Assembly: GCA_965655095.1 (NCBI GenBank)
Contig: OZ296652.1
Location: 71,920,001 to 71,984,000 of the forward strand
DNA: 64,000 nt
Direction of reading: 5' to 3'
Origin: Haplodiscus bocki
Taxonomy: Eukaryota
Shown here: piece by piece, positions 4,067 to 40,179 of the stretch
Layout of the letters: every line of letters starts with the position of its first letter
Position numbering within the stretch: position 1 is the stretch's first letter
Translations under genes and position numbers: made by a program
The notes under the pieces: generated by a model
Told to the model about the DNA's origin: nothing
Databases searched by the model: none
What the model saw: only the letters and a program-made list of their open reading frames with translations

Positions 4067-4500
4067 TTTGTATTTTAGAGAAGTCTTTACTACAACATCA
4101 TTTTTTCAATGAAAATTGAAAGTTTTTTAATGAAGTTAAATAAACTACAGCGGGATGCTATTTACGTTGCGAGCGCCTCATATTTCAAACTCCTTTTTTG
4201 CGTTGTCCAATAAAAAACCTCTTTTCTTCCAAGTTATACATACCTTTTCGCAGACAGTATCGCATCGTTTACTTTCTCAAATCAAATTAACTTAATGAAT
4301 TAAGTAATATTTAATGATCGACGCTTCAGTGCATACCTTTCAGTCACGTCAAAGCTGAAATACCAATACTTAGCTCGTTTCTTTCATATTAAATAAAAAA
4401 ACTGCTATCATACGAAGCAACCACCAGCGCTGAAACTGTATAAACACAATTTATTATCTAATTAATAGCCAAAATAACCATAATTCATCTGCAGACATAC
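4067..4500. promoter_or_regulatory. Probable bidirectional promoter shared by ATPAF1 and the CAP-Gly gene
   Basis: Only 434 bp separate two divergent ATGs. The interval is TE-free, with CCAAT words (~4207, ~4363) and a CRE-like gtcacgtca (~4343). Confidence 0.55.
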
Positions 4501-6835: not shown

Positions 6836-6987
6836 CAACTCCGAAAATAATAAAAGTAGTTCACAACTCCGAAAATATTAAAAGTAGTTCACAACTCCGA
6901 AAATAATAAAAGTAGTTCACAACTCCGAAAATTAAAAAAGTGATCCACAGCTCCGAAAATAAATTAAGTGTAGCTTAACTCCGAAAA
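6836..6987 (+). repeat. 28-bp tandem repeat (~5.5 copies) in the left subterminal region of the MULE
   Basis: Units of CAACTCCGAAAATAATAAAAGTAGTTCA start at 6836, 6864, 6892, 6920, 6948 and ~6976. Confidence 0.95.
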
Positions 6988-9370: not shown

Positions 9371-9799
9371 AACTTTTTTGCAAACCAATAATGTTTAAAA
9401 AGAAGGCCGAAAACTAACGCCGCGTGGGTCACGTGACTGAAAAATTTGGCGGCACAAGTCGGAAAATAAATTTGCGTTGCACAAGACCGAAAATGAATTT
9501 AACACCAACCCCTCCCCCCTCCCAACCCTGAAGCGAAATCGTGATTTAAAACATTTTTTTTTCACTTATTCGGTTTAAATTTTCGCATATCCATTCTGGC
9601 GTGTGTGTGTGGGGGGTGGTGGTGGTGGAATTAACAGAAATCGGTTGTTAAATTGGATTGGACGAGAGATTTAATCATTTTTAATTATTTTAGTCTAAAT
9701 AAAGTTTCGGAGTTAAGCTACACTTTTTTTATATTTATTTTCGGAGCTGTGAACGTTGGGAGCTGTGAGACGACACCCTTCGCACTTGAGCCAATGGTA

Positions 9800-13990: not shown

Positions 13991-14199
13991 CTCGAAAGAG
14001 AAATGAGAGTTTCTCTCTTGCTCTTTCTCCTCTCTCTCTCTCTCTCTTTCCCTCTACAAAAAATTGTTTATCGTTTTGTCAAATAGCGTTGAGCAGAAGC
14101 AAGACTTTACAGAGTACATTTGTTGTTTTTTTCAATCTTTGGCGGGATTAACGTTGATTGTTTCTTGTGAAACATTCCCGGATAATATAATGAAATTCA

Positions 14200-17100
14200 C
14201 AGTGGTAGTAGCAATAGTGGTAGTAGAAAAACTAGTAGTAGCAGAGAAAGATTTAGAGCCAGAACTCAAAAGTTAGCACCCGTCAGCATTGGTCCTGATT
14301 TGTTTTGAGTTTGCCATGTGGATTACAGAGACCGCATTTGCAAAGGAATCGCCATGTTCAGGGTATGTTCTCTAGGAAGCATTGGTTAAAATAATGCCAG
14401 TAAATTAGCATGATAGTAGTTTTGTCTATTGGGAGTTCGAGTGACTTTGTGAAACGGAGGACTTTGTTGTACAGTATTGCAGCAGGTATGAAAAAGTTGT
14501 AGTTGCCCTTGGAGCGTTTCGTGTCCGTAACTTTCAGTTCGTTGCGGAACACTTGTTTCGTAGTTTTCGTTTCCATGATTTTAACTACATATTCAGGGCT
14601 CAAGTCGTGGTCTCTACCAGAGAGTTTGAGTAATATCAGCAGGTTGTGTGTCTCGAAAAATATGGACAATGGTGGCAGATTCAGTTTCCTGAAATTTTTT
14701 TGCAGACATCGCCAATACTAGAAATATACATCCACCTGACTGATCTTTTTTGACTTTCCTCTAAGTTTTCAAAAACTGTGATGTTTGGAAACCATGCTTG
14801 AAGAGATCTGGCCCGAATTAGCACTGCGTAACCCGTGTAGGCATTCATTTCCAAGACGAGACTGCTGTGAGCTGACAAGCTCCGCTTCAAAATGAAAAGA
14901 GCTTTCAGTGCTTTCTTTCTGGTCCGACAATTATCATTCCAGGACAGTGATTTTTTAGCTTGCAACCATACGTATCTTTGTATTCCAGGGCAGAATAATT
15001 GTTCCCCCTGGACGCTGCCACTTATGGATTCACGCAAAGTAACCAAGGCATATTTGCTCATATTCACTCTCATGCTGTTTTGGTTGCACCAATCAGCAAC
15101 AGCTGTCAGATCGGAATCAAGCTCTTCTTGACTTGAAGCAAGTACCTTGAAAACATCAGCGAAACCAAAAGCGTTCTGAGGACAGTATAACGTTTGGTCT
15201 GTCATTTTTAAAGATCAAGAAAAATAGAGGTCCCAATATTAATCCTTGCGCGACGCCTTTTGTGACGACTCCATTTCTTGATCTTTCATCCCATATTTGA
15301 ACGTACTGCAGTCTGTTTGTAAGATAAGATTTCAGAAAATGCAATAAACTTCCTCCAATCCCAATATCTGAAATTTTCCGTCGAAGTGTACCATGAGGAA
15401 CAGTGTCAAATGCCTTGGAAAAATGTTGGTGTAGACACTGAGCTCTTGATATTTGTGTCAAGATTTTCAAAAAACTTTGAAAAGGTAAAAAAGTAGCTGC
15501 ACGACTGCAAAGCGTTTTTTCCGGAAACTGAATTGTTTTGGGTGTAGCCTTTCTTTGACGTGATTGTAGATGGCATCGTGAAAATTTTTTCCGAAAACTT
15601 TTGAGACGCAACGTAACGGACGGAATGGTGTGTAGCAACTGATGTCAGTTTTACTACGATCCTTGAAAAATAGGAAGATTTGTGACATTCTGCGCAGCGG
15701 AAGATAAATACGTTTGTTGATTGCTGTCTGGAAAATTATTCTTGGGGACTTGGAGATTTTGTCAGCAATATTTCGCAGAAGTAGGTTTCCAATTTTGTTA
15801 GAGCCGGTGGAATTGTCCAGATTCAAGTTCTTGATAATCTTTGCCACCTTCCATGATAACCCATTATAATCAACCTTCGTCATTAGCAGTTTGTTTATGG
15901 ATTTACCTTCCATGCTGATTTGACTGTCGAACACATCCGATGGATTGAAAACACTGATGAAAACAGTATTCCTCTGTTCGCAAATGTCTACAGTTTTTGA
16001 AGCTAATTGTTTGTTATGATTCAATTTTCTAAGAACAGGGGGCAACTTTTGAGTCGAGGAAAGGTATTTTTGAATTCTGCTGAATCATTTGGACTGCAAG
16101 GCGTCTTTTCCGCAGCAACCCAAATCAATGTCAATTGCTTTTTCAAATTCTTGTTCTAACCATCTAGTTTTCTGTTCAGGTTTGACATCAAAGCTTGATC
16201 GTTTAGTTTTTAAAGTATTACGTTTTTTCATCAACTGGTCAGTGTGACCACTTATCCATGGTTTCAGTGAGATTCAATGCATGGTAGTGATAAGAATGTT
16301 AGGACCAACTTTTTCATCGAACCAATCATACTATTGATTTACTAGAAAAGTGACAAAACTGCAGCGGAAACAATTCAAGAAAAATTTAATTAGGCTTTTC
16401 TTGAATTCATCCCAGCTAGCTTTCTCCAGAGCGAAATTTCGCAATATAACTGCAAACGGTTCCGGTGAAACGTGTATGATTGTTGAATAAAGTTGTTGAT
16501 CAGTCAGGGTGTAATTTTTCAAGTGTTTTGTGTCAACTTTGGTTTCACATCAACATCCGGACTGTTTGTGAGTAAAATACCTAACTGTTTGTGGGACTGG
16601 TCATGAAAAAATTCTCCGTCAGATTGTGCAAGCAATTCCTGAGGAAAACAGTTTTGGAAATCGTATTTTTTTGTGAGAATCATCCAATTGGTTCTATTGA
16701 AATATATATCATGAGTATTTTTTGTGCTGGTGCAATCATGAATGGAAAAGTGTTTTCTTGACATCTCAAAAACAGATGAAGTTCTCCACTTGACCTTGTG
16801 TGTTCACTTGGAGCAGATGAGTTAAAGTTACTGCATTTTTGCAACTTCCTAGTCATTAGTGTTACGCTGACACTAAGAAAATCAGCAAGCGTTATTTGTA
16901 ATTTAACTTCTTGATGGAGAAAACGTTGTTTACAGGATTAAAGACACCATCATGTTTTGAGTTATTGGAGTTTGTTTCTTTGCTTTTCTTGAATAATGTA
17001 TGCCTCTCTAGAAAAAGGCGTCATACGGTACATTGTGTTTCATCCAGGTTTCAGTGAGACATGTCTTATCATAACCATGTGTCAACTTGCATTTTGAGAG

Positions 17101-21249: not shown

Positions 21250-22330
21250 TCAGTTCATCCAGTTGAAAGAAGAATGTCGTTCAGCATACGCTCGTTTGAC
21301 AAAAAGATCTAAGTTTTTACCCCTTAAATTCGATTTTTCCATCCAAAAGACTTTTCAGCAGTTATTCGAGATCGCAGACGAATAAAACCTGCAAAATACT
21401 TGCAAACGTCCTAATGTGAAACAATGTGGTCAACATAAAAGTTGTATTCAGAGAACGAGACGTGTAAGAAACAACAAACGCCGGAGCACTGCGATAATTT
21501 CCGTCAAAGCCGTGCAGCAAGGTTTGATGGAATGTACATCAGAAAACTTCAAAAGGAACCCTGGTAAACTGAGTGGGAGGTGGTTTTGCAAGAAACAACT
21601 TGGGATCTGCAGAGAACGGAAGTTATCAATTTTCCTGCTTCCAATTTAGTTTTGATCAAATAGTTGGATTTCACAGACATTTTTCCTGAAAGATTCCCCA
21701 GCCGTTAGTCACTACAAAAGAAGACAAGTACCAGGTTGAAGAGCAGAAGTTTTGAAGTTTTCGCCTTGTTGCATATACGGAGTCCGTTAAGGGGAACTAC
21801 ATCCAAGTTTTTTTGTACAAAAAAACAACCCCAAAATCTGAACACTGATGGCAAAATTGAAAGTGTTAAGTCGGGAACAAACGGCCTTCGGCCATCCGGA
21901 GACGTAAAAACTACTTACAGTTCCTGAGATGCGTGACCTAGAGGGAAACCTAACCAAGAATTCTGGCAAGGAGCAAAATGGAAGAATTTTTTGAAAACGA
22001 GTCCTGTTGATTGGCATATTGTCGGCCAAAATGTTGATTGAAGCTACAACGAAGGAAAACACCATCAAAAAACTAAATTGCTGGCAATTGTTCACACTCT
22101 CGGCCCAGAAAAAGCCTGAACATGGAACACTTTGAAGTTTTCCCATGGCATAATTTTCTTTGAGAAACAATTGATGATTGGGACCATGTTGAAGGATTCT
22201 TTCCAGTAATTTCAGTGATAGTTGCATTCGGATGTCGTGGACCAAAATACCGGGAACACAATTTGATGTTTTCGGCGTAACAAAACGCCGTGACAAAAAA
22301 ATAAATCATTTAACGTCGATTTGGAATTAT
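21250..22330 (-). mobile_element. Second decayed Ty3/Gypsy RT/RNase H fragment
   Basis: YAMGKLQSVP (MPxGLxxAP-like) in ORF 21787-22296, RPFVPD (RRFIPxF-like, ~21868-21890) and VDH (TDH-like, ~21430). Confidence 0.45.
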
Positions 22331-25300
22331 TTTTTCGGAAAATGATCTCGGCAAACGCCTTCAAGAAAGAAGTCAAGCGAGTGAATCCGATTTTGATCTC
22401 AAAGAATTGCTTCCTCTAAAAAACTTTTTGGCATGCCCAACTTATTGAGACTCTAGTGCACGACGCAAATGTAGAGTTTATTTTACAAAGATTGCCTTCA
22501 AAAATGGAAATCTCTTGAATTGTGCTTTGGCAGATTTAAGTCAGTGGTAACTATTGCAAAAAGTAAGTTCGAATATATCCCATAATCAAAAAAGCACTTT
22601 CAAGCAGTTTTGGCGTCTCACGACTCAAATGCTGGAAATACAAAACCATATTTTTTTGATCGCAAGAACTTGTTGATTCAGACGTTCGATGATGTAGCTA
22701 AACCGGAGCTCATCGAGAAGAACTTGGATTCAAGGGAAAAACATTAGTAACTTTTTGTCGTGTACTGAAATAAACAGCCTTAGCTGAGTCAGTTGAACTT
22801 GAATGCTCCCTAAACTATATAACAATGAAGTTTAAACAGCTTAGGTGATTTAATCATCATGTTTCTTTAATGGAACAGGAAACTGAACAGGAAATATTAG
22901 CTCACATGTGCAATAATTCAATAATTGAAATGTTTGGTTCTGTCTAACCGGAACGATGTTGATTGAGAGATCTCATGTTTCTGTCTGCTCAGCCAAAATG
23001 ATTTTCCTTCTGTCAAAAATACAAAGCCATGAAAACCTAAAATACATTTTTTTTCAGTTGGTGACAGTAGGGAAACGAACTTGTGATGCAATACAGTGAA
23101 GCATTTCCTTATTTGTTGTTAGGGGCCGACCTGTGCTCCCTACCAAGAAATCAATGTAAGCATTTCACGTCATCTACCCATCCTAATCACAAATCATCCA
23201 CAAAAGATTCATTTTCACGCTGAAGTCCAGTTCCAGAGCCACGGAGCTGCAAAAGTAAAACAGGAAGAGGATCGACAGTATCATTGAAGTAGATAAGTTG
23301 CAAGCTCGATCGGTAGACTGGGTTTTGTTTCAATTTCAGAATTTAGTGCTTTTACTCCGACACTGGGCGTGAAAAACACCCATCGATGTCGGCACGTTAA
23401 CAATTGAATTACAATTGATGTTTAATTTAGGCACAATGACAACACGATGCACGGATTTAAACAATCAGTCGGACATTTGAAGAGATGTTTTTACTCATGA
23501 TTAATATCAAAACTGTTGATGAAATCAAATTAAGTTCGGATGTTGTAAGTTTCAAGATGATTTAACGCTTCGACTTGTCATAATTCTTTCCCTTTAACCT
23601 GGAACAACATCTCCGTTCAACTTTCCGCTCCTAATTTGAATTTTTTTTCAAAGATTTTAAATTTGACCATCAATTACCAAACACTTTACTTTACTGCGGG
23701 TTTCTGAAAAGATTTTTTTTCACAAAAACTGAGTTTTACACTACTCTGAGGTTTCTGTTTTTGTTTTTTGTCTTATGGGGTGGCACAGTTGCTGTCATCT
23801 ACGTTCTTTTTGTCGATCGCTGATGTTTTTTTGCTTCTACAAGGAAGTTGACTAATAACTCTTCAAAAAGACTCTCTGCAAGATTTTTCCCGAGTTTTCG
23901 AGAAATTTTTTCTCAACAGTAAAAACCTTGTGTCAAGGAGTAACTGTTGTTTTAAAAACGGTTTTTCGTTGAGTTTTCAGTTTTCTTTTTTTATGCTTTA
24001 ATCTACCTTAATCGTATTTTTTTTCAACTTCAAATAATTTAACTTACTCATTGAACCTAAATATTGCTCAACCGCAACTTACACTAAGTCCCTAATCTGG
24101 TTAAAAAAAGAATTTTTTTTTTCAATTTGAACAAGTACAGCAAAGTAATTTTGCAATAACAACGATTCCTACTGAAAAGAAAGCTAGTTTTTGACAATCG
24201 CATCTTCGAGGTTGGGCCCCCAGATTTTTTTGAAACTTTCACTTTGGTTACACGTCAAAATTTAAAACTTTCAATAGCAGCTTTTCAGGATCGGTTAAAC
24301 AACCCACAGTTGCAACAGCAACATGTTTTTTTCCTTGAAGAACTTCAATTTGACTCCAAAACTGATAATCGAGATAACTCATCGGTAACATTGCAAGCCA
24401 GGGCCCTGAGAGCCTATCCGGATCAAAATATTTTGGCATTTGCAGCAATTGACGCATATGCAGCAGATGCTGCTGCTGGACAAACCCGGTTTGAACAGGA
24501 CACAGCGCGTCGGGCAGAAATGATACCTTCTGCTCAAAAAACACGTTCAGTTCGAAATAGGCACCATTTCGTCAAACTTATGCCTGAATGGCTACGTGAA
24601 AATTTACTTGAGCAGCCTGAGAAGACTACCGGTGAAGACATTTAAGTTTTTGCGGAAAACAGCTGCCACTCCCTAACTTCTCTTGGAACGATGACTCAGT
24701 GATGGCCGATTCAAGTGAAATGTGTACTCCAATAAGATCTACATTTGTTAAAAAACTGACAAAACTTAACACAAGTCAAGAAGCTATGAGTGTTTGCCTA
24801 ACTGAATTGTCCGAAATGTTCGATCCGAAGAACGCAGCATAAGTTTAGCAAATTAGTTCAGCGACTCTCAAAAAAATCAAGCACAACGTCTTCAAAGAAG
24901 CTCTTTCTCGCAACTTCGGGGAAGAAATCCAGTTTCAATTGTGGATATTGGAAACTCCAGAAGCCACTTACGCAGAAACAATTGGGGATTCAGCGGAATT
25001 TGACCGAACTTTCCACAACTCCGCTGGAAAATTCAAAACCAGAAGAGTTAAAGGCTTTGAGAACAGTTACATCAGAAACACTTTTAATGGCAAAAAAGAA
25101 GGTTCTTTTTCCGACAGAAAACTTCGAAGTTTCCATCGGAAAATCAGTTTTTTCAGCAAAAAGATCGGAAAATTCAAGCTCAGGGCTCTAACTTTCAGAC
25201 AAGACTAACGTTTAAAGTCTTCACCACTGATGTTAGTATGTGGCGTACACAGCAGTCAACAGCGACCTTTCATGCGGCTATTCCAATCATTTATCAATCT

Positions 25301-28300
25301 TCTGCACTGTTGGACGAAATCTTCCCAGTGGTGGAATTTGAAATCCATGTAATCAGAAATCAAAACAGTAAACGAGCAGCACAAAACTCAAAGGCCTACC
25401 GACGCAACAAAAATCCAGCCGAATAAACAAAACACATGCTCTATATTTCCTTCTTAAGTCTCGCAGGAAAAGTGTGCTGTTCTTTCACTTTTCGTTAGAG
25501 GAGGAAACACTTTTTTATGCCAGACCTAAATGTTTTTTTTTAAAAGAAAACGGTGAGCCGTTTTATACACAAGCTCCTGTGCTACCACTTTACCTTTTAC
25601 ACTGGCCAGATTTGACAATTCAGCTGAGCCAGTTCTTACCTGAACAAAAGAAGCCGTACTACAAAAAAAACTACCGAAAGTTTTGCTGCTTTCGACAAAG
25701 GAAGTAAACACTCCGCCTCAGTCTCAAGAACTCTCGGAGCGCCATTTGGCGAAATAATCAGATCTTTCAAATCTTGTCACGGACTTTTTCTACCTAGTGA
25801 GCGACTGGAAAAACAGTGTAACATTACTCTTACCTCGTTTCTTAGGCAAAATGGTGATGACAGTAAAGTTTTCGTTTCAGTCATAAATCGTTCTGATGAT
25901 CAAATTACAATGAACAATCAATCAAAAACAGTGCGGTTCAACATTTCAAATGAAAGACAGGCTAGCAATTTATTCAAAACAGACCCTCTGTTGATTTCAA
26001 CTGAAAAAATGCGTAGCGCGACTGGTTTTGAAGACGGACTGAACCAGTTGATTCAACAATATATTTCTCATGTAAATGACACACCAACAAGTCGCGCACT
26101 TCCGGAAAACTAAAAAAACTGGTTTCCAATTAGAGAGTCATGTAAGGATTTTGCTAAATTGACGCCTCTGCAACGAGAAAACTATGATAAGATATTGAAA
26201 ACTCAACGCTCGGAAAAAATGCATCCGTGCAGTAATGACTTCAAATGGAAAGATTTTTCGAAACAATTTCTTGGGACGTTTCTGTCCTAGAAACTAACCA
26301 AAAAAGGCGAAGTCAGGAAGTTCTGCTTGAATGCCATGATGTATCTGTCAAACACTCCTTTGATGAGAGGTAGAACACAGATTTCATGTTTAAATTAACC
26401 ACTGAACACTCATTTCCGGTGTATGTTCAACGTCCGCCAGCTTCATTTCACCTACGTGATGAGACTTTGAAGGCACCTGCCTTCTGGCACGGCATTAATT
26501 TTATATTAACTTGTCAAATACCAATGACAGTAGTCCCTAAAGGTTCATCGCAAATCAACTGATTAAGTGAAATTTCTTATTCACTTATTCCGCGTGAACC
26601 ATTTTCTAGGCCATGATTCCACAAAAAGCATTTATCCGATCTCATATAAGACACATGCCTTAAATCATTTCGGTGGCAACAGTTTGTTGTGTATTGTAGA
26701 GTAATCCCAAGCATTTGATTGTGTTCAATTTGTAGATGACCTTCCGGTTCAAAATCTGGCTCTTAACTTCGCCTCGCAAACTTTCGGCTACAATTGCTCA
26801 ACCCAAGCTCAAAAAACATCTTTGACGAGATTGAGTCTAATGGCAAGCACAATTTCCGCCCGTGAATAGCAGCGGAAGTTTTTCTGCAAATTATGGATGA
26901 TGTTTCTGCCGGGTTGAAAAAACTTAATGAAATGATACCTGCTCTGCGAAGTTTTTCGATTCTTTCAGACAATCGGGTATGAAGTTTTCCGCACACAAAC
27001 ATGTTTTCGGAAGAACAAAATTTGTCTACCTATATAGCAGAAATTCTCCTGCAGGAGTTTCGTCTGATTGCACAGAAACCGAAAGAACTTCTAGAAAAAT
27101 TCGAATGCAGAACACTGTGAAACAATTAAAACGCTTTTTTGGCTTCGCACAACTTCTTTTTAATCTTCCTTTTCTGATCCTGGTCAAAAAACACTACCAT
27201 TTTACCGATTGTTAGAGAAAAAAACACATTCATAGTCACTTAAAATTATCACGAATCATAAAACCTTTGAAAAACTGATTCACAGGTGCTACAAGTTTGA
27301 CATTACGTATAGCAGATCCACGTCTCCAGTATGTCCTCATTTGTTATGCTAGTTTTCATGGGACTGGAATTGTGCTTTAGATTGAAGATTTTTTCATTGA
27401 TCGAAATGGGAAAAAAGAAAACTTATACACCAGTTTTTATTTAATTCAAGACTCTTCAATGCTACGCAATTGAAATTTTCCTTGTACTACAAAAAATTCT
27501 TATTTTTGTATTTTGCCCTACACCATTTTGCCCTTTTCTTTTGTGGCGAAACGAAAACGGTCATGGTGTTAAAAGATAGTCGAAGCATACCGCATTTTTT
27601 TCGACAAAGTTTTCATCCTTCTCATTGCAACTGCCTAGAGCGAGTTTCGACTTCAACATTTTGCTTAGGCACATACTCGGCAGGGCAAACGCCGCTGCAG
27701 ATTTTATTTCGCGAAATGAAACGGATATTAGTTTGAGTTTACACATAAAATTCACGGATTACCGGCTTATACATGAATTTGGAAATGGAACAAAAGCGAA
27801 AACCCCAGATGTATCTTTGTCAAACATTGTTGAAATAACTCCTTTTTCAGAAGACTTGCTCAGTGATCTTGACGAACATTTCGTCAACCAGTTAAAAGTT
27901 CATGGTCTTTACGAAAGTTTTCTAGCGGAAACCGCTATTTATTAATCCGATACTCCTAATACAGCCTTTCTCTTTTTGACACAAGTTCTACAAGTCAACT
28001 TAAAAGAAATCAAGGATCCTGAGGAGGGCCTCAGTGATTTATCTAATAGATCTTAGTCCCCTTATTTGAAGCAAGAACACGAAATTTTTGAAATCATTCG
28101 TGAGGTAATTCTCTTGAAAAATCCAGGATATTCTGATCAATCTCCAATATGGCCTATTGCTTTGCTAAAATCCCCAAAAAATCTTTGCCGCCTAATGGTG
28201 GAAGATGATATTCTCTGTCATCTTCCCCGGGACAAATGTGACAAAGCGAATCACGAACAGTTTTCTGTACCTGAACTTTTTTGGCCTGAAGTAATTTTTC

Positions 28301-30199
28301 CGTTTAATTATTTCAAAAACCACAGGACCTTCTGGGATTGCAAAATTGTTCAAGAATTCTGCAAACGGTTTACTTTCCAAATTTAACAGAATTCCTAACT
28401 TGTCAAAAATTCGTTACATGCTTACAATTCAAATTAACTCTTTCTAAAAATTTGAAAACGCCTCTAAAACCAGTACCAGCTCTGACTTCAAATTCTAATT
28501 GGACATCTGAAATGAAATGGTTGGGCCAATAAAGTAACCAGTTTACCGTTGTGTGTCGGCAGCTATTGATGTTTTTAGAAATAGATGGTTGTTGTCTCTT
28601 TGATAAATATCAGGGCAGGACTGACGTCAAAACATTTAGGACATAGTTGGTTGCCTGAAACCATTTCTTCCACTCTGGGTACTTTTTTGCTGAATTGTTG
28701 GATGATTCAACGGAAAGACTGAAAATGGAAATAGATCAAGCAAGTTTTAAAGACCCACACACGGTGGGAGTTGTCGAACGCTCTCATAGCCCACTTAGCC
28801 GCATTCTCAACTGGAATCCTAATGGCCGATGGACTTGTTCGTAAAAACACGTGCAAAAAGCAACCTAAAGCCACAGTATGTGTTATCATTCAGCGATTAG
28901 CTTGAGCCCTACATTTCATTTTCGTGGACGTGAACCACTCAAACCGTTAGATTCACGAAGTGGTAAGACATTGATTAAACGTCTTCTTCTGATTAGTGAG
29001 TGTGTATTCGCAATGAATGATGGGAAGGGAAAAAATTCTCCGAAACGAGTTTTAAACTTACGGAGTGCTACAAAAAGTACAGTTCCTATGAAGACTGCAA
29101 AACTGAAGCCAAGATATTGGCCCTCCCTACTGACATTCACTCAACATTCAATTGATGCGTCAATCCGATCTTGCTATGAAACTTTCACCTAATTGGTATA
29201 CCATTTACCGTGTGGATGAAGTTTTGACAAACTGTAACTACTTCAATAAAAAAAGTGAGAACTAACAATACACAATGACTCCATCTCACCAGATTGCGCT
29301 CAGTAAATCCACAAAGTCGAATGGTTGATCTCAGGGTTATCAATTTTGAGAACTTTCAATTCAAATTATCGTTGAACAAATTTTGCGAGCAACCAATGCC
29401 CTTTGATGAAATCAATCCTTTCTTTTTGGAACCGCCCACCAGAGTGACTACAACACAAGATGTAACGAAGGGTCTGCCACTTGTAACTGTTAGCTTTCGA
29501 TTTCCAGTCGCTCCAGCACCCGTACCAGTCGGACTGGCAGCTGGCACGGCTCCGGTACCCCCAATTGCTGTGGCGTTGGCTGAACAAATTGAACACAAAG
29601 TGACAGAGCCACCGTCACCAAAACGACCTCTCCTTCTATACTAGATGTTCGTTTTTCTGACAGTTTTGATGAGTTTTTGTCAAAAGAAACCTCACAAGAC
29701 GCTATCATGTTCATGTTGCGGGAAACTCCTGGTAAGATCGATGGAGCGAAACAAACACTGCCATTCGAAGCAATACCCGCTGACCGGCAACCTCCACTCC
29801 GCCTTTTGTGTACAAACTTACACACAACTATTTTTTGCGAAAGTCGTTTTAAACTAGACGTAATTCTCCCACGAAATGTACGTTTCCAATCAGCTTTGAG
29901 TAACAATAACATTTTAACTAGTTGTCAGGCCAATAGACATCAAACCATTTTTGAGTCTTTAGAAGGAAGTTGTGCACAACTAAAACAGGCTACCTCATTA
30001 GGCCCAGATCTATCTACTCCTGTTTCTAGTCCAAAACTTTTCAGTCAAACATAACAGCAGCAGACAGCACCTGCATACTTAGAGAAGCAGAAAAGAAATA
30101 AAATTTTACTACACCTTGACGAATTTAAAGAAAGAGCCAAGATCCTGGATTGTTGTAAACGCAGTCAAAAATGCTAGTATCCCACAATTTTGTCGCTTT

Positions 30200-30630
30200 T
30201 TTCGGCTTATTATTTTGTTAGCTATTACATTTAACATGTTGTATTTCCTAAAACTACGCTTTGGCAAAAACTTGGCTTTCACGATAGCCTGTTGCTATTT
30301 TGACCTGCCGGATTTTCGAAAATTGCCTTTGAAATAAAGCCACCTGGCTCTTTCGCAAACTATTTTTATCAACATAACATTCGATTTATCTAAAATTTAG
30401 TAACAAAGCGGCAACATTTTCTGAAACTTTACTACGAAACGCTAAAACAGAGCTTCTAAGTGTCAAGGCAACATTTGGAGCGTCATGAGATTCAAGAAAA
30501 TACCATTGCTAATTTTGGTTGTGGCAATGATTAGTTCCATTGGCCAACGTTTTTTTTCGATTTCATTTGAAACTTTTCCAAAGTAAAAAACAATACTTCA
30601 GCATAGTTGCCAGCGCAATCGCAACTCCAG
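30200..30630 (+). pseudogene. Putative env 5' part (signal peptide, cleavage site and fusion-peptide-like segment)
   Basis: Hydrophobic RLIILLAITF directly after pol. Basic-then-hydrophobic QSKKQYFSIVASAIAT ends where the antisense insert begins. Confidence 0.4.
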
Positions 30631-33600
30631 AAGTTGACAGCATTTCCTGCTCCCAACCAGTGTTTTTTTGGGCTACACACTGGACTTTGATGTGCCCCAG
30701 AACTTCAGGTACCCACTGTGACCTTCAAATATCTGTTTCTCAAAGTCAACAATACTTTCCGACCTATACTTCGGTTGTGGGGGCTCACTTCGGATGCTGC
30801 TTTGATCCCTCACACTCAGGTTGGTATTGGAGCCAAAAAAAATTATCTCGCCCTCTGGCGCTCTTCCTGAAAATTAGTCAAAACCAAAAATTTTACACAA
30901 AAAACGGAAAGTTTCTCCCATTTTGCTCATAAAATGTATATCAATGTCCCGATAGGACATTATTGTATCACACGCACTCTTCTGGTGGCTTCATCTCTCC
31001 TCCACTTCATTTTTACAAGTTCTCGGAAATTTCGAACATTTTTTTCGAAATAATTGCTGATAATTACAGATGATATGATTGACAATTGTTCATTTTTTGC
31101 CGAGATATTTTTGCCTTCCTAGCCAGCGAGCAAGAAGTTGCTCCAGGTTCTTGATTTGTTTCATCCAGGATCTTAAGAAACACAGTATTTTTTGTACAGC
31201 AACAAAAATTTCTGAAACTTCTAAATTTTTAGGTCCGAATGGCAGCCCTTTGATTGATAATTTCCAATAGCAAAAACGTCATTACTTTTTAACAGGTTGA
31301 TCTGGATGGGCTCTCATTGCAACATTTTATAATTTTCTGCAAGGACACACTGTAACACGACGGCTGCTCTGCTAGCTGGCTCTTTTTACTCTGCTGGGTA
31401 CTGTAATCAATCATTCCCATTTTCTTAGTGTTTTTATTGTATATTGTCCTCTCCCAACCGGCAGGTTGTTCCAAACATCTTCAATACTAAGAATATTACG
31501 AAGTCAGTGGTAAAGTTTTCGAATGCTGAACGTATCTTACACATGGCTCTGACCATGAAACCTGCTTAGCAGTCCTTTTGTGTTTCCCATTCGTTCGCTG
31601 AATACTCTGAAAATTTTCTTGAAAGTCGGTCCAATTCGGGATCCCTCGTTTGTTTTTCATTGGCTTATCTGAGCCGCCGAAAGGCATTGCTATTTTTCTT
31701 TCCTGTGGAATACTTTTTTCTTTCTCTTTATCTCTCCTAATTGACGTGTTTATCATCATATGTTAACCACCACTTTTCTTCCCACTCATGAGAAAAAAAA
31801 CAATGGAGAACCAGCAGACTCCACCCACTTCAACGAGCTTCCTTTTGCTTTCAATTGCGTCAGGGTTCCCTAGAAGCACCAAATCATGTTACTCACTTCC
31901 TTCAGCAGCTCGAACACTTTTAGTGCCCAGTTCAACACACTTCCGAACTCCTGCAGCTCTGGCACCTGTGAAACTTTTTCCAATAACGGACTTTATTGAA
32001 AGCTCGGGAGCGATTGAGACAGTGGTACACATATCTTTAGCAATGAAATCTCCTGGTTTTGAAACAAGTCCTTTTTACACTTGAAAATAAAAACTCACTA
32101 ACTCACGACAGACAGTCTCCAGTCCATCAGTAATTTTGGGAATCACAAACCCCGTTTCAGTTAGTCTTTTTCGTAGAGTGGCTAGATCCTTGACATGCTC
32201 TTGTACTTTTTTTCACGGGTTGTACACATTGTTGCACCTGTTGTTCTGTCGGAACTTTGAAACCATCAGACCGTAATTGATCATTTTTACTGTATACAGC
32301 AGTAATCGCTTTCTCCATCGATCCTTCTCTCGTTTTTTTTCTCTCACAACAACGCGTCTAACCGACGCTCCTCCACCATCTTGACAACAGCAATATGCAT
32401 TGAGGGCTTCATAATTAATTTACAAAAAACAGAGTTTACGCCTTTTTTAATTACGACTTAGAGCATTTATGTGTCCATTCCTAGCTTCATGGCTGCCAAG
32501 AAAATTTGTTTGTGTACATCTCGCCTTCCGTCTAAATTTTCACCGTGGAAGCTTCAAGTGCCTTCGGGGATCCAATACCTCTTGTTTTCTTTGCAATAGT
32601 GATTTGCTATTGAGGAAATTTCACATTCTCCTTTGTTTGCACATCCGCGTTTGGTGCATTCTCCTCTTTGATATTTTGGCGATATATATTTGCGTCTTTT
32701 CTATCATTTCATTCATTCTACATTCAAGCGCTCGTTGCTTTCAATTTCCTTGACCAATGATTTTTGCGATACTTGACGAGCGGGAAAATCCCATCCAGTT
32801 TTACTCAACTTCAATGCAAGTTGATGCTAACTACATTGTCATCCGCAATATAAACGATTGCGAGGGGTATCTCACGATGGGTCTTGACAATGGTGATGTT
32901 TTGCAGCTCGACGTTGGTGATGAAAAATGGTTCGAACTCGGCACTTTTAATCATTGTAGTGTTTTTAAAGTCCCGAAATAACATGGACTGTGTAGACTCG
33001 GTCAGTTCAAAAATCTTGAAAACAAATTGAAAAACAGTTTCAAAGCTCTCGAATCAACTGTCTTCCCGTATTCGATTCTTATTTGGAGTCAATAAATCTG
33101 GACAAATTGGAGCTAGATTTTTTCGATTGGATTTGATTTGATTTATAATATTCTCGTTTTGTTGAACTCAGCGCATCAATTCCAACTTGTTCTTAGTGAT
33201 GTGTCCGACACTAACCAGAAACACATCGCAGTCCGCTTATAATTTTCCTTCTAGAGCTTTTTCTTAAAACGTCTTTTTGCAATTTTGAGTTCTGCTAGCG
33301 ATGATTAAAACGGCGATCAGTTAGAATACTAAAAAATTTTCGACTAGCTGAAATTTCCCTTGCTCTTTTGTTTTGATTACTTATGGAATGTTCATTTTTG
33401 AACACGTTTAATCGAAAAAAACAGAAAACAATAAATTCCAAACAGCTGTTTTAAGCTACAACTCAAAAAATTCAACTCAAAAACTGTTTTTTTTCCATTC
33501 GCTTCAAAACTGTTTCTGACCGCCCAATTTCTGTAGTGGTCTTTTCTCAACTCTTGCAATTGCCGAAAAAAGCGATGAAACTCATAAACCACTGCATATT

Positions 33601-34940
33601 AAACATGGCAAGCCACACCGGCGCCTTTGCCCAGCATGACTGCTACTACACTTCACACGGACACTTCCTCCACTGATGCCTTGCCTTAGAGTGAGTCTAA
33701 CATGAAGGGTCGTTTTTGCACCCACGCCCATCTACCGTTACTACTTTTGACAACCGATCCATTGCTGCAACATAGTTGCTTGTGGCTTCGCCACGACTTT
33801 CCTTGACCCGCTTAGTTGCTTTGAAAGACTAGGAAAATCATTACGATCGTTATCATTAGTTTCTTTTCTAAGTTGAAAAACTCGAAAATTCGTTTAGATT
33901 TTAATAAAATTGAACACAAAACTGCAGACAAACACGCTTTATGAACAGCTGCGTTGCAAAGCCAAATTACTAGTTCTTTTCGGCTTTCGTTTTTAAGGCC
34001 AAGTTCAATGGGCGTCCTATTGAGGTTTCAATTTCGAACATCCGCAACAGAATTTCCTAAACAAACATGACCTTTTCGAAAAATCTGATCATCCACTATT
34101 GGATGTCAAGGATAGTTTCTCGATTTCTTCACCTCCTCGAACTTTGAAACCACGGCTGAAGAATTGACTTTTAACCACTTTGTAAGTTCACAAATATTTT
34201 CAGCGAGTTTTCACAAATTTTGTCATTCTTTTTGTTTCCTCCACCAGTCAATATTTTGATGATTTAACATTAGTTAACCAAATCCATAAATGCTTCTTCT
34301 TTTACATCTGCTGTTCACTCCTGCCTCTTTTCGAAGTCAGTGGGCATCAAAAACCGAGTGCCCAAACAACGCTAACTATATACTTGAAAAGGGGATTTTT
34401 TTCCACGAGCAAGGCAAAATTCCTAACAAAGAAAATCATTTGCTTTGACTTTTTGGCACATTTCTATACTCATGAATATGCCATGCAACCGTATATCGAG
34501 CAAACTATTAAATGCTTTTCAGCAATATGGGATTTGCCTTCCATTTTTTGCCCGTTAATTTTTTCAAAAACTTTTTGTCCCTTTTTTTCTGTCTTCTATG
34601 TTAGTTAGATCACTTTTTCAAATCGAAAATGAAAATCGTGAATCACACGACGACATCAATACTATCCACAAAGATATATCAATGCTTCTGCGCCTTCATT
34701 CATTGCTTCTGCGCCTCCATTCCGAGTAACAACTGACAAGACTTTGACGCGGTGCTGGTGTGGGCCTGGCTGCTACTGCCGTCACTGGTCTCATCGAGGA
34801 AAGTGTTGCCTCAGGTTGTTCAGACTCTTGCGGCCTTGCTAGAATTTTAGGAGGTTGTGGCGACGGAACCCAGGCACGCGTATTGAAATTCGCTGCCGTT
34901 TCTTAGACTACCCAGACGTCCTGACGCAATTATTTGTAAC
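30630..34940 (-). mobile_element. Nested antisense Ty3/Gypsy internal fragment (PBS-gag-RT-RNase H-start of integrase)
   Basis: On the minus strand: TTACA followed by PBS-like TTGCGTCAGGAC (~34918-34940), zinc-knuckle-like VKCSSSHAGQRRRC (~33615-33660), RT TGFVIPK (~32135-32155) and GLVSKPGDF (~32045-32072), PNWTDF (~31625-31645). Confidence 0.6.
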
Positions 34941-34944
34941 AGAT

Positions 34945-36630
34945 TGATCAAAAACACGGGTAAAAATTTTTCCTGTCAAAAACGAATTCACCGCCCTGAA
35001 TGCAGTCCAAGTTTAGTTAACATCGACTCAAAACCAAAAACGGGCGTTTATCCATGAACAATTCATTATGTTTGAACGAGTTTTTCAAATCCAACTTGGT
35101 TGTAATCAAATGATTTCTTTCGAAACCACAATTAAACTTCGACTTTGACGCTTTGTGTTCTTTGTCCGCTATGATTCTTCATGATAAAATGAGTTTTGGT
35201 TCAGCTCTGTTTGCCTTTGAAATGTTTTCCTCCATTCCATCACTGTTGTTTGGCGAGGTCGTTCAACTTTGTGGCTAGTTCCTACGATTTCACTCATAGT
35301 AATGTTAGAAATTGTGGCGATCCAACAGCGTAAGGCTGAAAATCGCGTTTCCGTTGCAATTCCGGTTACCGATCTTATATCATTTTGTGATTCGCTTTTG
35401 CTGGACGATGGTATAGCGATAGCACAAGAATACTTGTTGACACATGGCAAACAGTTGGCTTCTCGGCAGACAAATTTGCCACGTTATGAAGCTAAAGTGA
35501 TCACTATGCCGTATCCAGATAGTTCGCACTCGGCTCTTGAATGGATCTTGTCGCTCCATATCTAGCTATCCCCGAAAACCAAAAAATGGTCTGTTTCATC
35601 TCTGTACCGGTTTGAGCACTATCTCGGTTCATCCAAGTACTGAATTTGTTCCAAGAATTTTCCGGTAGAAATTGGACATTCTTCTTTTTTTTTTGCTGCC
35701 ATGTTTTTTGATTGCTCCGATGATGCTCTTCCATTTTGTGTTACTTCACTTGTTTCGTTACCATCTGCTGAACCAGTCACAATTTCAGGTTGTGGAACTG
35801 GTACTTCAACATCAACCTCAGATGACTTTCTTATTCGTAAAACTCATGCAACATTTTCATCATCCAAACGCAATCTTTTGCTGGTTGTGGCATTTGTATC
35901 AGCACACTTGAATGTGGTATGCAGGTAATGACAAGGAAAATCAGAATCAGATCTGATCTAGCCAGTCACTCTGAATTTCCTGCCATCAAATTGTGCTTTT
36001 CATTGCCACATACCATGGCATCATTAATTATGCAAATAACCCGTTTAGATGAGTTTCCTTTTTATGACTCGAAGGCAGAAGTGGAAGTGAGGTTTTTGAA
36101 AGAAGTTCGGAAAGAACTGTTACTTAGTACGAGAGTCCGCGAAGTGAGCCAACCTGTAAATTTAGCAAGTCCTCTTGCAATTGACACGAAAGTTGTGATA
36201 CCATAGCTCATTCTCGATTTCATCGAAAAGGCCCCTTCCAAAATTTCGTTCAGTTTGACTGATATTGTTTTTGTGATTTTGACAGCATTACATCTGTTTT
36301 TCATGTTTGTTTACAACAAACACCTTCTTACAGAACGACTGCTTTCAAATGTAGTTAAATCAAATAATCAAAAACAACTTGAACCAACTGTTCATGTTAC
36401 CGAGGAACACCTCGAAACCTTACCAGTTCGTGAAAAAAAATGGGACGACGTTTTCGATTTCCTCAGCAATTTACTTTTTCGGTCCTCAAGAAACCTACTA
36501 ATTCTATGGCTCAATCAAACATAGCAAATTGCTTACTGGAGTTACTCCAGCAGATGATGACACTATCCAAAGTGTCAAACATCAGTTTTCCAACAACAAT
36601 TTGCCAGACCAATTCAAATCAATCCTGAAA
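34945..36630 (+). pseudogene. env-like membrane fusion glycoprotein, 3' part, frameshifted
   Basis: Consecutive plus-strand blocks: helical KNEFTALNAVQ and QLNFDFDALCSLSAMILH; LVPTISLIVMLEIV..VAIPVTDLISFCDS..LASRQTNLPRYEAKVITMPYP; Cys-containing ectodomain 35701-36206; single transmembrane segment DIVFVILTALHLFFMFVY plus cytoplasmic tail. Confidence 0.7.
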
Positions 36631-37399
36631 AGGAAAACGCAACCACAAGCGCTTGATTGAATTCACGTCTCCATTGTTTAATCACGCATTACTAAAAACT
36701 GATTTCAAATTAATGTTTTTTTGCAATAAAATGTAAATTATAAATGTAGTAATTTTCTGACTAAAACGCAACAGAAGACGAAAGCAACACTTTGGGACTA
36801 GCACAAACAGCAACGTCGCAACAAGAACTCGTAAAAAATTTGGGCATTGGATTACTTGTGCTGGTTGTTTCTGTTTTTTTCCATTTCAAAACGTTTTTTT
36901 TGGGATTCTGCCTACTTATCGGAGATCTCTTCGGCTTCATGCTGTCATTTCAGTTCAGTCGATTTGATTTTTCCATTCTTCTCATTTCAACATTACACTG
37001 GATTCCCCCAACCGTCTGTTGGTATTTTACAATGGGCGGGAAGTGTTTGATAGGAGGAAATGTCATTTACTGAATTGAAAAACCTTAGTTGAGGACAGTT
37101 TTACTTGAATTTATAACTCTGATTTCCTTGGAAATTAAACCATTTAGCAATGAAGTTAAAACAATTTAAGTCATTTATTCATCATGTTCATTTAATGCAA
37201 AACGATATTGAGCATGAAATAACGAGCTCAGGTGAAACATATTTCATTATCTGAAAGGTTTGGTTTTAAATAACCGAAAGAAATGTGACGCAAACATCTG
37301 ATATTTTTGTCCAGTCAGCCAAATTCGCTTTTCTTTTGTCAAAACTACAAGGCAATGAGGACTTGAAAAACAAATGTTTTATTGAGATTTCTCGGCACT

Positions 37400-37890
37400 T
37401 TCAGCCTCGCAGCATCTCGATTCAAAAATGCAAACTCGCTGGTGGCCTGAAGGAGAATTGCTTTTACAGTGAGAAAACTGCCAATTGAGATCTTTATGGA
37501 TGAAATTTGGCCGGCAGTTATGGCAGAAACTGAGCTTGTTTATCGCCAAAAATCAACACTGAAAGCAAATTTCGCTACTGTCGGCCTACAAACAAAACAA
37601 TGTAAGACGCAGAATTTTTGGCGCTTTACTTCAAAGTGTTTTTGTTTGTAGAAAACTGCTAATTATGACGTTGACGGCGATAAACAAGCCAGTAGTTCTA
37701 GCAGAAATGGATTTTCAATATAGCAGAAAAACAAAATTTATTCCACGTTTTGGCATTATAGGCGTAATAGGGTTTCAGTGGAAAACTCAAAGTTGCTCGT
37801 GGTTCCTTTGAATTCGCAGCGAAAAATGGAAACTGCCAATTAAAACCATGTAGAAGCGGATCCAGTAGCTAGATAACAGGAAATATGAAA
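37400..37890 (+). repeat. Degenerate ~178-bp tandem repeat, about 3 units
   Basis: AAACTGCYAATT recurs at ~37475, 37653 and 37830. CCRGYAG motifs follow at ~37511, 37689 and 37862. Confidence 0.6.
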
Positions 37891-39183
37891 CATAAAATGT
37901 CAGGTGATCGGAAGTGAATTACTTTCTGAATTAGGTCTAACACAACTACTGAGGGAGCAAAATCAGTTTGGAATCAAAATTTGTGTTTCATTGGCATTAA
38001 AACAACCAGAACGGTGAAAAAAACAAGCATACTGAAATCACGAGAAAATGTCATGTATTTACTCTTAGGAACAGTCATCAAAATTCGGCTTGTCAAGAAA
38101 ATCCAACAAAGTTGATTTTTTTCAGAAACTTTTCAAAAAGAACAATTTGTTTCAATTGAGAATTTTTGACACAGGGAGTACAAACTCTAGAAAGAAACAT
38201 CAAGAAATATCAATAAAAATTAGTTGTCTAATGATGAAAAATTTCTTAAAAAGTATGAGTGTCTACAAACATTTGAAGGAAGCAGTTTGTAGAGGGATTT
38301 GAACCTACAGGGTAATTAACCGCAGTGGCAGTGCATTGCTGCTTTAATCAGGTCACTATCAGTGTGGACTAGCAGGGCGAATTGCATGTCTGCTCCGTAA
38401 GTAAACTAACTAAAGTGTGCGCGACATAGGTGATTTTCAATGAGGGAATAAGAAGCTCAGGTACTGAAATGAATTTCTTCCTTTCAAACTCTCGTTCGAC
38501 AAAAGGACTATTTAGGTATCAATAAATCAGTTTTTTTCAAATCCAATTTTATGTAGTTCAGTTTCCTGGAATTACAGTCGAATAAGAACTGATGCGCTTT
38601 TTATTAATTTTACAAGAGCTCGAAGAGAAAGGAGATATTGAGGCTGTTGCAAAAAAAACAGCCATGAGGAAATTACCAAAAATTGGACTCCTTCCTTACT
38701 CGATGCAGATCGGAAGCATTTAAAAAATTTGAAGCGTAGTAGTCGCTTCAAGTATTATTGAACAAAGGAAGAAATTGACGGAAATTTATATGCCTTGTTA
38801 AAGCGTACTGGACGATTGGTTGAAGATGATTGATCAATGTTTTTTGTTCTATGGAAAATTGTGAAAAATCTGCAACCGATTTAACACCAAGACTTCGAGA
38901 AGGAGCTCTTTGAATTTGAGATATTGCAAATTTGAGATATTGAAGAACAGCAGCGGAATCTGAGGCTGAAATGATACGAATTCGAACTATGGCAGGCCTG
39001 AGAGCTACAGAGGCAAACTCACAATGTCGAATTCGGCACAAGTCATTAAAAATTTGTTGGTAGAAGAAATGTTGCAAACCTTACATTAAGTTACAGACCC
39101 AATATTGTTTGCTTCAAGGTCGGAAAAAGAAATGACGACAGACATAATCTTCTCTCAAAGAAGGAGGGGCCATGAAAAGAATA

Positions 39184-39952
39184 CCCGGGTTTACACCCTT
39201 ACAAAAAACATGGAAATCATAAAAATTCATGTATGGTGATCTATGAAAACAGTAAAGTCATAGCAAGTGCCATAGAGGTCTATGATAACATTCAAGTCAT
39301 AAAAAGACCATAATGTAGTATGATTCCATGCAAGTCATACATTGTACCATGGTATGACCACAGTATCGAAAAGCATGCGCGAATTTTATTAGATTATGGT
39401 AGCGTATTATAGTGAACAAAATTTTGAGTTGAAAAACTCATGGAAAAGATTACATTAAAGTGTGAAGTTCAAAACTTCTGGCAATAATTGAGTAGGGAAC
39501 ATAATATATGCCATGTACGTTAATTTTTGGTTGCCTAGAGTTAAAAAGGAGATCTTGTGAAATCCCATTCCCAAAAAGTATAGTCTACAGTGATGTAGTG
39601 TTCGACAAATTGTGAGAAAGCTGTAAATCATTCTTTCCTAGCATAATGGCGGAACGTTAAACTCTGACAGTTGCTGATGGTTTTGCCATTGCCAGGTCTT
39701 GAAGTTTTCAAGATGTTTGAATTACTCGAAACTATGTACAAAAGAATCTCAAAAAAAAACATGAAAATCATTGGATGACCATTCAAAAAAAACATTGGAG
39801 TCATTAACTGGTCATACAAGTTTATGGCTGACAGACTTTTTACACTATTACCATAGAAAAAAAACAGGAAATTAATGGCATTACAATAGGGTGTTTTTAT
39901 TGTATGGAAGTTTATGGTGCATAGTATGATTTGCATGTCAGTTCAACCCGGG
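39184..39952. mobile_element. 769-bp non-autonomous DNA transposon with CCCGGGTT termini and TA flanks
   Basis: ta|CCCGGGTT...AACCCGGG|ta. The interior is non-coding and dense in CATG/CATA/TATG words. Confidence 0.65.
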
Positions 39953-40179
39953 TATATTTTTAACAATACTGTCTTCTGAACGCGGGAAATTTAGAGCCAA
40001 ACCGGCTCAATTACAATCAAATCATCCAGCGCTGGATAAAAACTCCAGCTCATGCAAATTAAAAAGGCACTACGATAAAACGTGTCGTAACTGCAAGTAA
40101 TGCCGATGACATACAGGCGAGCAGAATTATACAAATAACACTTCGAACTTCGAGGAAGAGAAGCCGTCGGAGGAAAGAA

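Follow-up and report, generated by a model that had tools for sequence, protein, structure and literature searches.

Layout of the element

At 22756-37385, the window, the whole 64,000-nucleotide stretch of DNA analysed here, carries one decayed Ty3/Gypsy element, whose genes are gag, pol and env, the last of F type. It is an old, dead copy with the layout LTR-gag-pol(macro)-accessory cassette-env-LTR, and belongs to an env-carrying Gypsy family with many young copies. The decayed 5′ LTR (22756..23058, plus strand) starts with TGTC, aligns to 37061-37380 and matches the LTRs of relatives, while the decayed 3′ LTR (37061..37385, plus strand), placed by the LTR alignment, has a purine-rich tract just before it. 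The two LTRs are identical in 219 of 299 columns (73%). In young copies the pairs were 98.8-100% identical in six of eight cases, with one further partial pair at 97.8%. A primer-binding-site-like motif, TGGTGACAG (23059..23067, plus strand), directly follows the 5′ LTR, as it also does in young copies. Target-site duplications of 5 bp, read by eye, were found at all six full LTR pairs of young copies; none was recognisable around the window copy. The window gave no Rfam match.

The gag gene (24050..25370, plus strand) is interrupted by frameshifts and stops, and was found by tblastn with natural 449-codon gag frames (E down to 1e-44); a natural gag copy has a zinc knuckle and a weak DUF1759. 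The pol gene (25270..30630, plus strand; approximate boundaries), located with a pol profile, is also broken. Its domains, ordered from natural copies, are protease, a weak dUTPase-like domain, reverse transcriptase (RT), RNase H, integrase and a C-terminal macro domain. Pfam searches of natural pol frames gave the order PR-RT-RH-IN, and the closest solved relative of the RT was that of Ty3 (E 1e-23). The decayed plus-strand Gypsy gag-pol reported in the preliminary description was confirmed by matches to natural frames and the pol profile, which placed gag at ~24050-25370 and pol at ~25270-30630, and intact relatives do exist.

The end of pol encodes a TARG1/OARD1-like macro domain (30257..30630, plus strand). 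A profile of pol C-termini matched 30322-30561 (E 2.7e-24) and 30257-30334 (E 0.006), and an intact pol mapped onto 30089-30555. The macro domain of natural copies matched human C6orf130/OARD1 (E 2e-18 and 5e-16), and the alignment at E 2e-18 covers both the TK and GCGxD motifs, which we take to be the location of the catalytic residues in the TARG1/OARD1 macro domain. The peptide QSKKQYFSIVASAIAT, noted earlier, is present at 30579-30626, but the surrounding 30200-30630, which had been read as the 5′ half of env, is this macro domain.

The env gene (34290..36660, plus strand; approximate end) is contiguous and encodes an F-type class I fusion protein, here with frameshifts and stops. It has its own signal peptide, with a start codon and hydrophobic leader at 34290. 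On the plus strand the env profile matched 34296-36470 only, over profile positions 7-718 of 762, with nothing in 29500-34290, so that the proposed division of env into two halves does not hold. Comparison with a natural relative placed a furin-like site, with a stop inside it in the window copy, and a fusion-peptide-like segment at 34739..34870 (plus strand), and the transmembrane (TM) segment at 36240..36312 (plus strand; in the natural relative, a hydrophobic peak spans residues 643-661 and a helix 645-679). The frameshifted env blocks described at 34944-36630 were all recovered, namely heptad-like helices, an IxMPYP block, a Cys-containing region and one C-terminal TM segment with a tail. 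About 650 bases of env (34290-34944) had been wrongly taken into the supposed insert at 30630-34944.

The assignment of env as a baculovirus-F/paramyxovirus-F-type class I fusion protein, also made earlier, was supported by several comparisons, among them an Atlas value of 0.95. The natural relative P0001 has a signal peptide, furin site, fusion peptide, heptad helices and one TM segment, and the fold of a natural 782-aa relative resembles that of F proteins. Foldseek searches with a natural relative returned henipavirus, RSV and PIV F proteins as top matches in the PDB (E 6e-7), and chu-like glycoproteins, an abalone herpesvirus ORF and baculovirus F in BFVD (E 4e-22 to 1e-18). The TM-scores of Env were low (0.2-0.4), and a VIA Z of 8.6 was tied with coronavirus spike. 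Pfam Baculo_F was found in 6 of 66 env homologues at E ≤ 0.1 (best 3.6e-7). P0001 alone matched no Pfam family and had no significant PDB sequence match; the env profile gave weak haemagglutinin HA2 heptad matches in the PDB (E at least 0.058), which were not used. Among the natural homologues in which the fusion-peptide motif was found, R-x-[RK]-R precedes it in 48 of 62.

The region between pol and env

The 3660 bases between pol and env (30630-34290) are collinear, by tblastx, with a 3.0-3.6 kb cassette between pol and env of young copies, where the distance was 2983-3627 bases in all five copies measured. Three genes lie in the cassette: one, enzyme-like, on the antisense strand, a 95-aa ORF in sense orientation, and a further antisense gene for a small membrane protein. 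The preliminary description took this DNA for another Gypsy element that had landed in env in antisense orientation, splitting 30200-30630 from 34944 onward. That the region is antisense-coding, and that exon 1 of its antisense gene faintly resembles an integrase zinc finger, may explain this reading, to which we now give almost no credence. No env match lies upstream of 34296, 30257-30561 belongs to the pol macro domain, and the middle contains no pol: the best pol-profile score there was E 0.33, compared to E values down to 5e-67 on real pol. Furthermore, young copies with open env frames carry the same middle region, which is therefore native to the element. A ~660-base stretch after the end of pol had only a weak match in tblastx against young copies, and 30600-31310 searched alone by tblastx had none at E 0.01.

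A census of 42 chosen stretches detected the env start in 41, always sense, the small TM ORF in 27, always antisense, and the 95-aa ORF in 23, always sense. The remaining place, the enzyme slot, was OTU-like in 20 stretches, JmjC type A in 7 and JmjC type B in 8, all antisense and never two together; the other 7 had none of these types. Thus, three mutually exclusive enzyme-like occupants share one antisense place. Wherever they were found, the three kinds of ORF kept the same order and strand, and the deepest clade shows an analogous arrangement. In one decayed relative (L045) only ~440 bases lie at the cassette position.

In the window, the slot is predicted from sequence to encode an OTU-like (PF02338) protease gene. 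This decayed gene (31290..32415, minus strand), with a zinc-finger-like N-terminal part followed by the OTU-like protease, is collinear with young copies by tblastx. Matches to these copies suggest four exons on the minus strand, at ~32415-32108 (E 2e-6), ~32040-31769 (E 2e-9), ~31709-31578 (tblastx only) and 31478-31305 (E 6e-6). The window copy has stops inside and its His motif is not intact, and the OTU likeness and splice signals were examined on other copies. There, comparison with OTU by hhalign gave 93.9% (E 1.6e-7). A profile of the OTU-like proteins matched 4 of 19 host-genome OTU domains at E ≤ 2.2e-4 and missed 15, with the best of 1450 decoys at 0.11. GGGKC occurs in all 17 OTU-like copies used, being the criterion by which they were selected, and xHCEP in 16 of the 17; the Cys box has Gly before the Cys where host OTUs have the Asp of GDGNC. 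Single exons had no Pfam match, and the zinc-finger-like part resembled integrase H2C2 weakly (3%, E 0.013).

Splice signals for the three putative introns were present at fixed places in 26 of 32, 24 of 29 and 29 of 33 copies, compared to a 4-8% background, although the copies are related and the counts not independent; one donor pattern was chosen post hoc, and the exon-2 donor overlaps a Gly codon. In one copy (L071) the reading frame is kept across all three introns. Among 63 database matches of 50-204 aa, none was recognised as a spliced OTU-like protein. In contigs from four runs of unknown kind, none of the 15 joints listed, with a further 32 outside the listing, fell at a predicted intron; these contigs were uninformative on splicing.

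The two JmjC-like occupants differ in how readily they can be recognised. Pfam JmjC (PF02373) matched all seven type B proteins compared (best E 2.4e-6), which contain the metal-binding residues, and a genome scan gave eight type B loci above the cut-off, antisense and 1.5-2.2 kb upstream of env. Type A had no Pfam match. Its identity rests on T154, H157, E159, K174 and H233, invariant in 12 of 12 sequences, which point weakly to a JmjC-like protein; hhalign of type A against type B gave 11% (E 0.003). The PDB profile search, the predicted fold (pLDDT 40.6) and the fold search were uninformative for type A; the best fold match (Z 3.3) was to unrelated proteins, with JmjC proteins at Z 2.0-2.7 only.

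Neither of the two smaller ORFs has an enzyme signature. The decayed ~95-aa sense ORF (32769..33065, plus strand) was identified by tblastx with young copies and in the census. It has 23 of 95 columns invariant across seven natural copies, with no Pfam match below E 0.1. The decayed antisense ORF (33557..33865, minus strand; match E 1.5e-25, four stops inside) corresponds to a ~104-aa protein with a hydrophobic leader, a Cys-containing ectodomain, one TM segment and a short basic tail; a natural copy shows two hydrophobic peaks. This small TM ORF is also found in a separate public record.

Selection on the cassette and its probable exchange

In all 14 ORF pairs compared, covering env and all cassette ORFs tested, pN was lower than pS (0.037 versus 0.117 for exon 1, 0.044 versus 0.153 for the 95-aa ORF and 0.019 versus 0.145 for env). 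Among eight young copies whose pol 3′ regions were 88-96% and env genes 90-96% identical, 25 of 28 pairs aligned across only 5-22% of the cassette. OTU and JmjC-A types were each found in two well-separated env clades. As env genes 90-96% identical flank cassettes that cannot be aligned as DNA, the cassette is likely to be a module swapped between related elements.

These data bear on whether the cassette might be passenger DNA, made up of functionless transposon or host-gene fragments that the element acquired between its pol and env. Other repeats of the genome commonly contain OTU domains (144 matches, many of which lie in frames of 2,500-2,800 codons), and the cassette can be absent, as in L045. 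We nevertheless strongly disfavour this explanation: pN is lower than pS in every pair, order and strand are constant, with an analogous layout in the deepest clade, the small TM ORF occurs in a separate record, and the window showed no terminal repeats that would mark an inserted element.

A different explanation accepts that the cassette genes are real and selected, and holds that they control how the element itself is expressed, how its RNA is handled or how it passes between cells, in the manner of Retand antisense ORFs or HTLV HBZ, with an Env that may no longer serve extracellular infection. Two of the cassette ORFs lack an enzyme signature, and the passages available from PMC11963269 describe antisense ORFs in the interval from pol to the 3′ LTR as fixed in Retand elements, with a proposed regulatory role. 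We regard this explanation as unlikely, while giving it some weight. Unrelated enzyme folds replacing one another in one slot would better fit an arms race than fixed housekeeping, and the constraint on env and the retention of its cleavage motif also count against this explanation.

We consider it probable that this dead Gypsy copy with a one-piece F-type env carries a swapped cassette that would supply enzymes against host marks. The macro, OTU-like and JmjC-like domains would counter ADP-ribose, ubiquitin-like and methyl marks, respectively, of host defence or silencing, and Env would allow particles to pass between cells. Introns may outlast reverse transcription if the gene and its introns are antisense to the packaged RNA. 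Internal two-way promoters may drive two head-to-head pairs 300-430 bases apart, namely the enzyme with the 95-aa ORF, and the small membrane protein with env. Cassettes may move by template switching between co-packaged RNAs, for which the end of pol and the start of env would serve as homology arms. More tentatively, the family may represent a 'complex' metavirus of animals. In that case it would be an infectious Gypsy lineage that keeps introns in antisense genes and has an exchangeable cassette of erasers for the three marks plus a small membrane protein, the cassette being reshuffled between family members in circulation together, much as in a defence-island hot spot.

Relation to known elements

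Complex retroviruses of vertebrates are characterised by accessory genes that counter host defence, and Gypsy elements are usually viewed as gag-pol(-env), carrying no more than one additional ORF. The closest parallels are Ty3/Gypsy elements with an env, called 'errantiviruses' when the term is used broadly (Chary and Hayashi, eLife 2026, PMC13524379). They share gag-pol-env between LTRs, a PBS, multicopy young insertions and an F-like env that has a signal peptide, furin site, fusion peptide and TM segment. F-type env is already described across animal Gypsy elements in that work, although the preliminary description had thought an undescribed env lineage possible. No prior description of the accessory cassette was found in the literature searched, with subscription journals and Repbase reports outside the coverage. 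In contrast to the elements of PMC13524379, pol here has a macro domain at its end and is parted from env by 3.0-3.6 kb of accessory genes; 'antisense', 'macro domain', 'JmjC' and 'accessory' do not occur in its main text. Its survey prefilter allowed a POL-ENV gap of at most 1000 nt outside insects, with later manual extensions to 3000-5000 nt, and in errantiviruses in the strict sense (the insect clade) env lies within about 1 kb of pol, compared to 2983-3660 bases here. Surveys that require env near pol can miss such lineages.

Other elements share single features. Plant Retand (Tat) Gypsy elements have, in the passages seen of PMC11963269, a 2.9-6.6 kb post-pol region with conserved antisense ORFs, but they have no env, their ORFs carry TRP28 domains, 'intron' is absent from the text and the passages contain no OTU or JmjC. 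The bdelloid rotifer elements Vesta, Juno and TelKA (PMC5408684) have modular third ORFs common to lineages and a dUTPase between PR and RT, and TelKA has a paramyxovirus-F-like env; unlike the env plus multi-gene cassette here, theirs is a single ORF3 (env, GDSL, DEDDy, TM), and intron, JmjC and OTU do not occur in the text. Oikopleura Tor3b/Tor4b, as covered by passages of PMC4402516, are Gypsy-like with a pol-env spacer and an env with an internal promoter, but those passages describe no accessory antisense genes. According to parts of PMC4977317 and PMC6431247, macro domain ORFs occur in fish epsilon-like ERVs (Retroviridae) and OTU proteases in Helentrons (rolling-circle DNA transposons); in these passages neither is combined with env in a swappable cassette. 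MDG1-group sORF2 and FAST-like small fusogens (PMC11952523) are likewise short single-pass membrane proteins from an LTR element, a likeness by description; sORF2 replaces env, whereas the small TM protein here, with its hydrophobic leader and Cys pairs, is encoded antisense and stands beside a full env.

With many young copies, a selected env and interchangeable cassettes, the family offers a natural experiment on the host pathways that an invertebrate retroelement must defeat, and suggests that introns can persist in an LTR element when antisense.

The LTRs of young copies end in TG...CT, not the typical TG...CA, which is common among Ty3/Gypsy elements and not strict in the passages available from PMC12440569. 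Membership of Troyka was rejected, as its termini are CG...CG with a 3 bp target-site duplication, compared to TG...CT and 5 bp here. Among viral contigs, none of 95 pattern matches was a relative of the element; among metagenome contigs, 1 of 224 was.

Env contiguity and the end of pol

The window element, a decayed Ty3/Gypsy copy at 22756-37385, carries its env in one piece. A profile of 66 env sequences matched five plus-strand segments at 34296-36470 (profile positions 7-718 of 762), a natural env aligned to 34314-36461, and a start codon with leader lies at 34290. The profile had no match in 29500-34290, whereas the preliminary description had an env split into two halves by a nested insert. 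Its supposed 5' half is the end of pol, as shown by the alignment of an intact pol to 30089-30555 and by a pol C-terminus profile that matched 30322-30561 (E 2.7e-24). This C-terminal domain matched human C6orf130 structures (E 2e-18 and 5e-16) and is a TARG1/OARD1-like macro domain. The middle had been read as antisense Gypsy sequence, but a pol profile found nothing in 30630-34290 (best E 0.33), and tblastx aligned this stretch collinearly with what lies between pol and env in young copies.

The element is bounded by a 5' LTR (22756-23058), followed by a PBS-like motif, and a 3' LTR (37061-~37385), preceded by a purine tract; 219 of 299 aligned LTR columns are alike. Frames within 22000-40000 do not exceed 172 codons, and the element is therefore heavily decayed. 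In a tree of 34 natural env segments it had the longest terminal branch of its own clade (0.25) and grouped with uniformly long-branched copies (support 1.0). It belongs to an old and dead subfamily; other members of the family are young.

Relatives were sought across the genome (1.5 Gb, 6626 contigs). Used as a DNA query, the 3' env region gave at least 43 matches (best 40 of 157 candidates scored); apart from the match to itself, identities were 66-73%. With a 114-aa env piece as query there were at least 150 matches (best 150 of 777 candidates scored), and at least 14 of those listed lie in frames of 798-846 codons without stops. Full LTR pairs were obtained for six of the eight young copies examined; the LTRs of a pair were 98.8-100% identical and ended in TG...CT, and target duplications of 5 bp could be read by eye. 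Env and cassette pieces of the family also occur in a tandem array of ~3-kb period (G000 C6, 56.62-56.68 Mb), and two copies, L037 (C2) and L055 (C5), have internal tandem duplications of pol-end and cassette segments. Two stretches, L035 (177-5987) and L027 (1-5532), showed a weak dUTPase-like match (E 0.03-0.05) between protease and RT, where bdelloid elements too have a dUTPase.

The Env was typed through P0001, a natural 782-aa relative whose features are a hydrophobic leader, RQRR, a hydrophobic segment rich in Gly and Ala, long helices, a beta region that contains Cys, a single TM and a tail. Its sequence had no match in Pfam or the PDB; Baculo_F was matched by 6 of its 66 homologues (best E 3.6e-7), and in Atlas the Baculo_F and Fusion_gly clusters ranked at 0.93-0.95 with low recognition. 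The structure model (pLDDT 71, pTM 0.57) matched paramyxo- and pneumovirus F in the PDB at E 6e-7 with a TM-score of only ~0.2 and, among viral models, chu-like glycoproteins, an abalone herpesvirus ORF and baculovirus F (E 4e-22 to 1e-18). VIA-align against NDV F gave Z 8.6 and an rmsd of 4.2 over 291 residues, a result that coronavirus spike ties. With 2433 representatives at E <= 0.001 the family is a broad one, and nearly all those checked are without a name. F-type env is already described in animal Gypsy elements (PMC13524379), and this env is a further member of that type.

An accessory cassette between pol and env

In young copies, three genes occupy the pol-env interval (2983-3627 bases in the five measured): one enzyme-like and antisense, one a sense ORF of ~95 aa, and one, again antisense, for a ~104-aa protein that has a leader and a TM. 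A census covered 42 stretches picked by env similarity or JmjC match, and thus not at random. Of these, 41 had the env start, 27 the small TM ORF and 23 the 95-aa ORF. The enzyme slot was filled by an OTU-like gene in 20 stretches, by JmjC type A in 7 and by JmjC type B in 8, never two together; 7 of the 42 showed none of the three. Strands were invariant throughout. Genome-wide, there were at least 150 matches each to the last OTU-like exon and to the small TM ORF (best 150 of 320 and of 399 candidates scored, respectively). The arrangement has an analogue in the deep JmjC-B clade, which has its own small TM ORF and ~95-110-aa ORFs, and in one separate public record the small TM ORF again lies upstream of env in antisense orientation. 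In the window, ~660 bases between the pol end and the last OTU-like exon (30630-31290) hardly match relatives.

The antisense gene of one copy, L071, contains three GT-AG intervals of 87, 61 and 91 bases, predicted introns whose removal keeps the frame and leaves 340 codons. Predicted splice signals stood at these fixed places in 26/32, 24/29 and 29/33 testable copies, against a background of 4-8%, the copies being related and the counts not independent. An OTU-like profile built from 17 of 35 copies, read through with X at the junctions, matched 4 of 19 OTU domains elsewhere in the genome (E <= 2.2e-4; best of 1450 decoys, 0.11), and hhalign against OTU gave 93.9% (E 1.6e-7). The N-terminal part has H..H..C..C spacing as in integrase zinc fingers, with a weak score. 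The window copy is of the OTU-like type; it contains stops, and its His motif is changed. JmjC type B has a Pfam match. The tentative assignment of type A draws on invariant residues and a weak connection to type B, the predicted fold of type A being uninformative. Many OTU domains lie in frames of 2,500-2,800 codons, in arrays ~15-17 kb apart (L118-L137 and others), likely another large transposon family, which we take to be Helitron-like.

In all 14 ORF pairs pN was below pS; several pairs were saturated, and the unsaturated ones agree. Among the eight young copies the cassette aligned over just 5-22% in 25 of 28 pairs, whereas pol 3' was 88-96% and env 90-96% identical, and the OTU and JmjC-A types each occurred in two separate env clades. 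Cassette diversity therefore far predates the elements that carry it, an indication that modules are exchanged.

Known systems and a proposed mechanism

A probably swappable accessory cassette with predicted introns sets this family apart from known env-carrying Gypsy elements and merits follow-up. As far as the available text of each source goes, plant Retand elements resemble it in their antisense ORFs but have no env (PMC11963269), and bdelloid elements have modular single ORF3s rather than a multi-gene cassette with env (PMC5408684). Macro ORFs are also described in fish ERVs (PMC4977317), OTU in Helentrons (PMC6431247) and a small TM fusogen, sORF2, in env-less elements (PMC11952523), and transposons fused with chromatin domains are widespread (10.1101/2021.11.30.470311). 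Our literature searches found no account of an env-carrying Gypsy lineage with such a cassette.

The mechanism that we propose builds on demonstrated steps, namely layout, contiguity, homologies, selection and mosaicism. Antisense placement would spare the introns from loss in reverse transcription, and head-to-head gene pairs may share internal promoters, for which the internal promoter of env in some Oikopleura Tor elements (PMC4402516) is a parallel. Cassettes could be exchanged through template switching. The three enzyme domains, by their putative activities, may remove host marks and so evade defence or silencing; the main rival to such erasure is a self-regulatory role of the cassette genes. 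Besides host-mark erasure, we propose that the putative function of Env would allow spread between cells.

Neighbouring sequence

Two frames at 43115-46113 (minus strand) presumably resemble BEL/Pao pol fragments; Pfam gave them no support at E < 0.05. The element's neighbours include two host-like genes of eukaryotic kind, one for an ATP11 family protein (3140-4105, minus strand, E 3e-44) and the other for a protein with a CAP-Gly domain (5184-5846, plus strand, E 1e-11), with an unnamed 180-codon frame between them (4462-5004). A 28-bp tandem repeat of ~4.5 copies (6836-6987) has a related match in inverted orientation near 9705-9775, and a MULE transposase fragment (7915-8373) lies between the two; together they are possibly a decayed Mutator-like element. 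Reverse transcriptase fragments, presumably of non-LTR type, lie at 12972-16084, with an RVT_1 match at 15156-15644 (E 9e-7).
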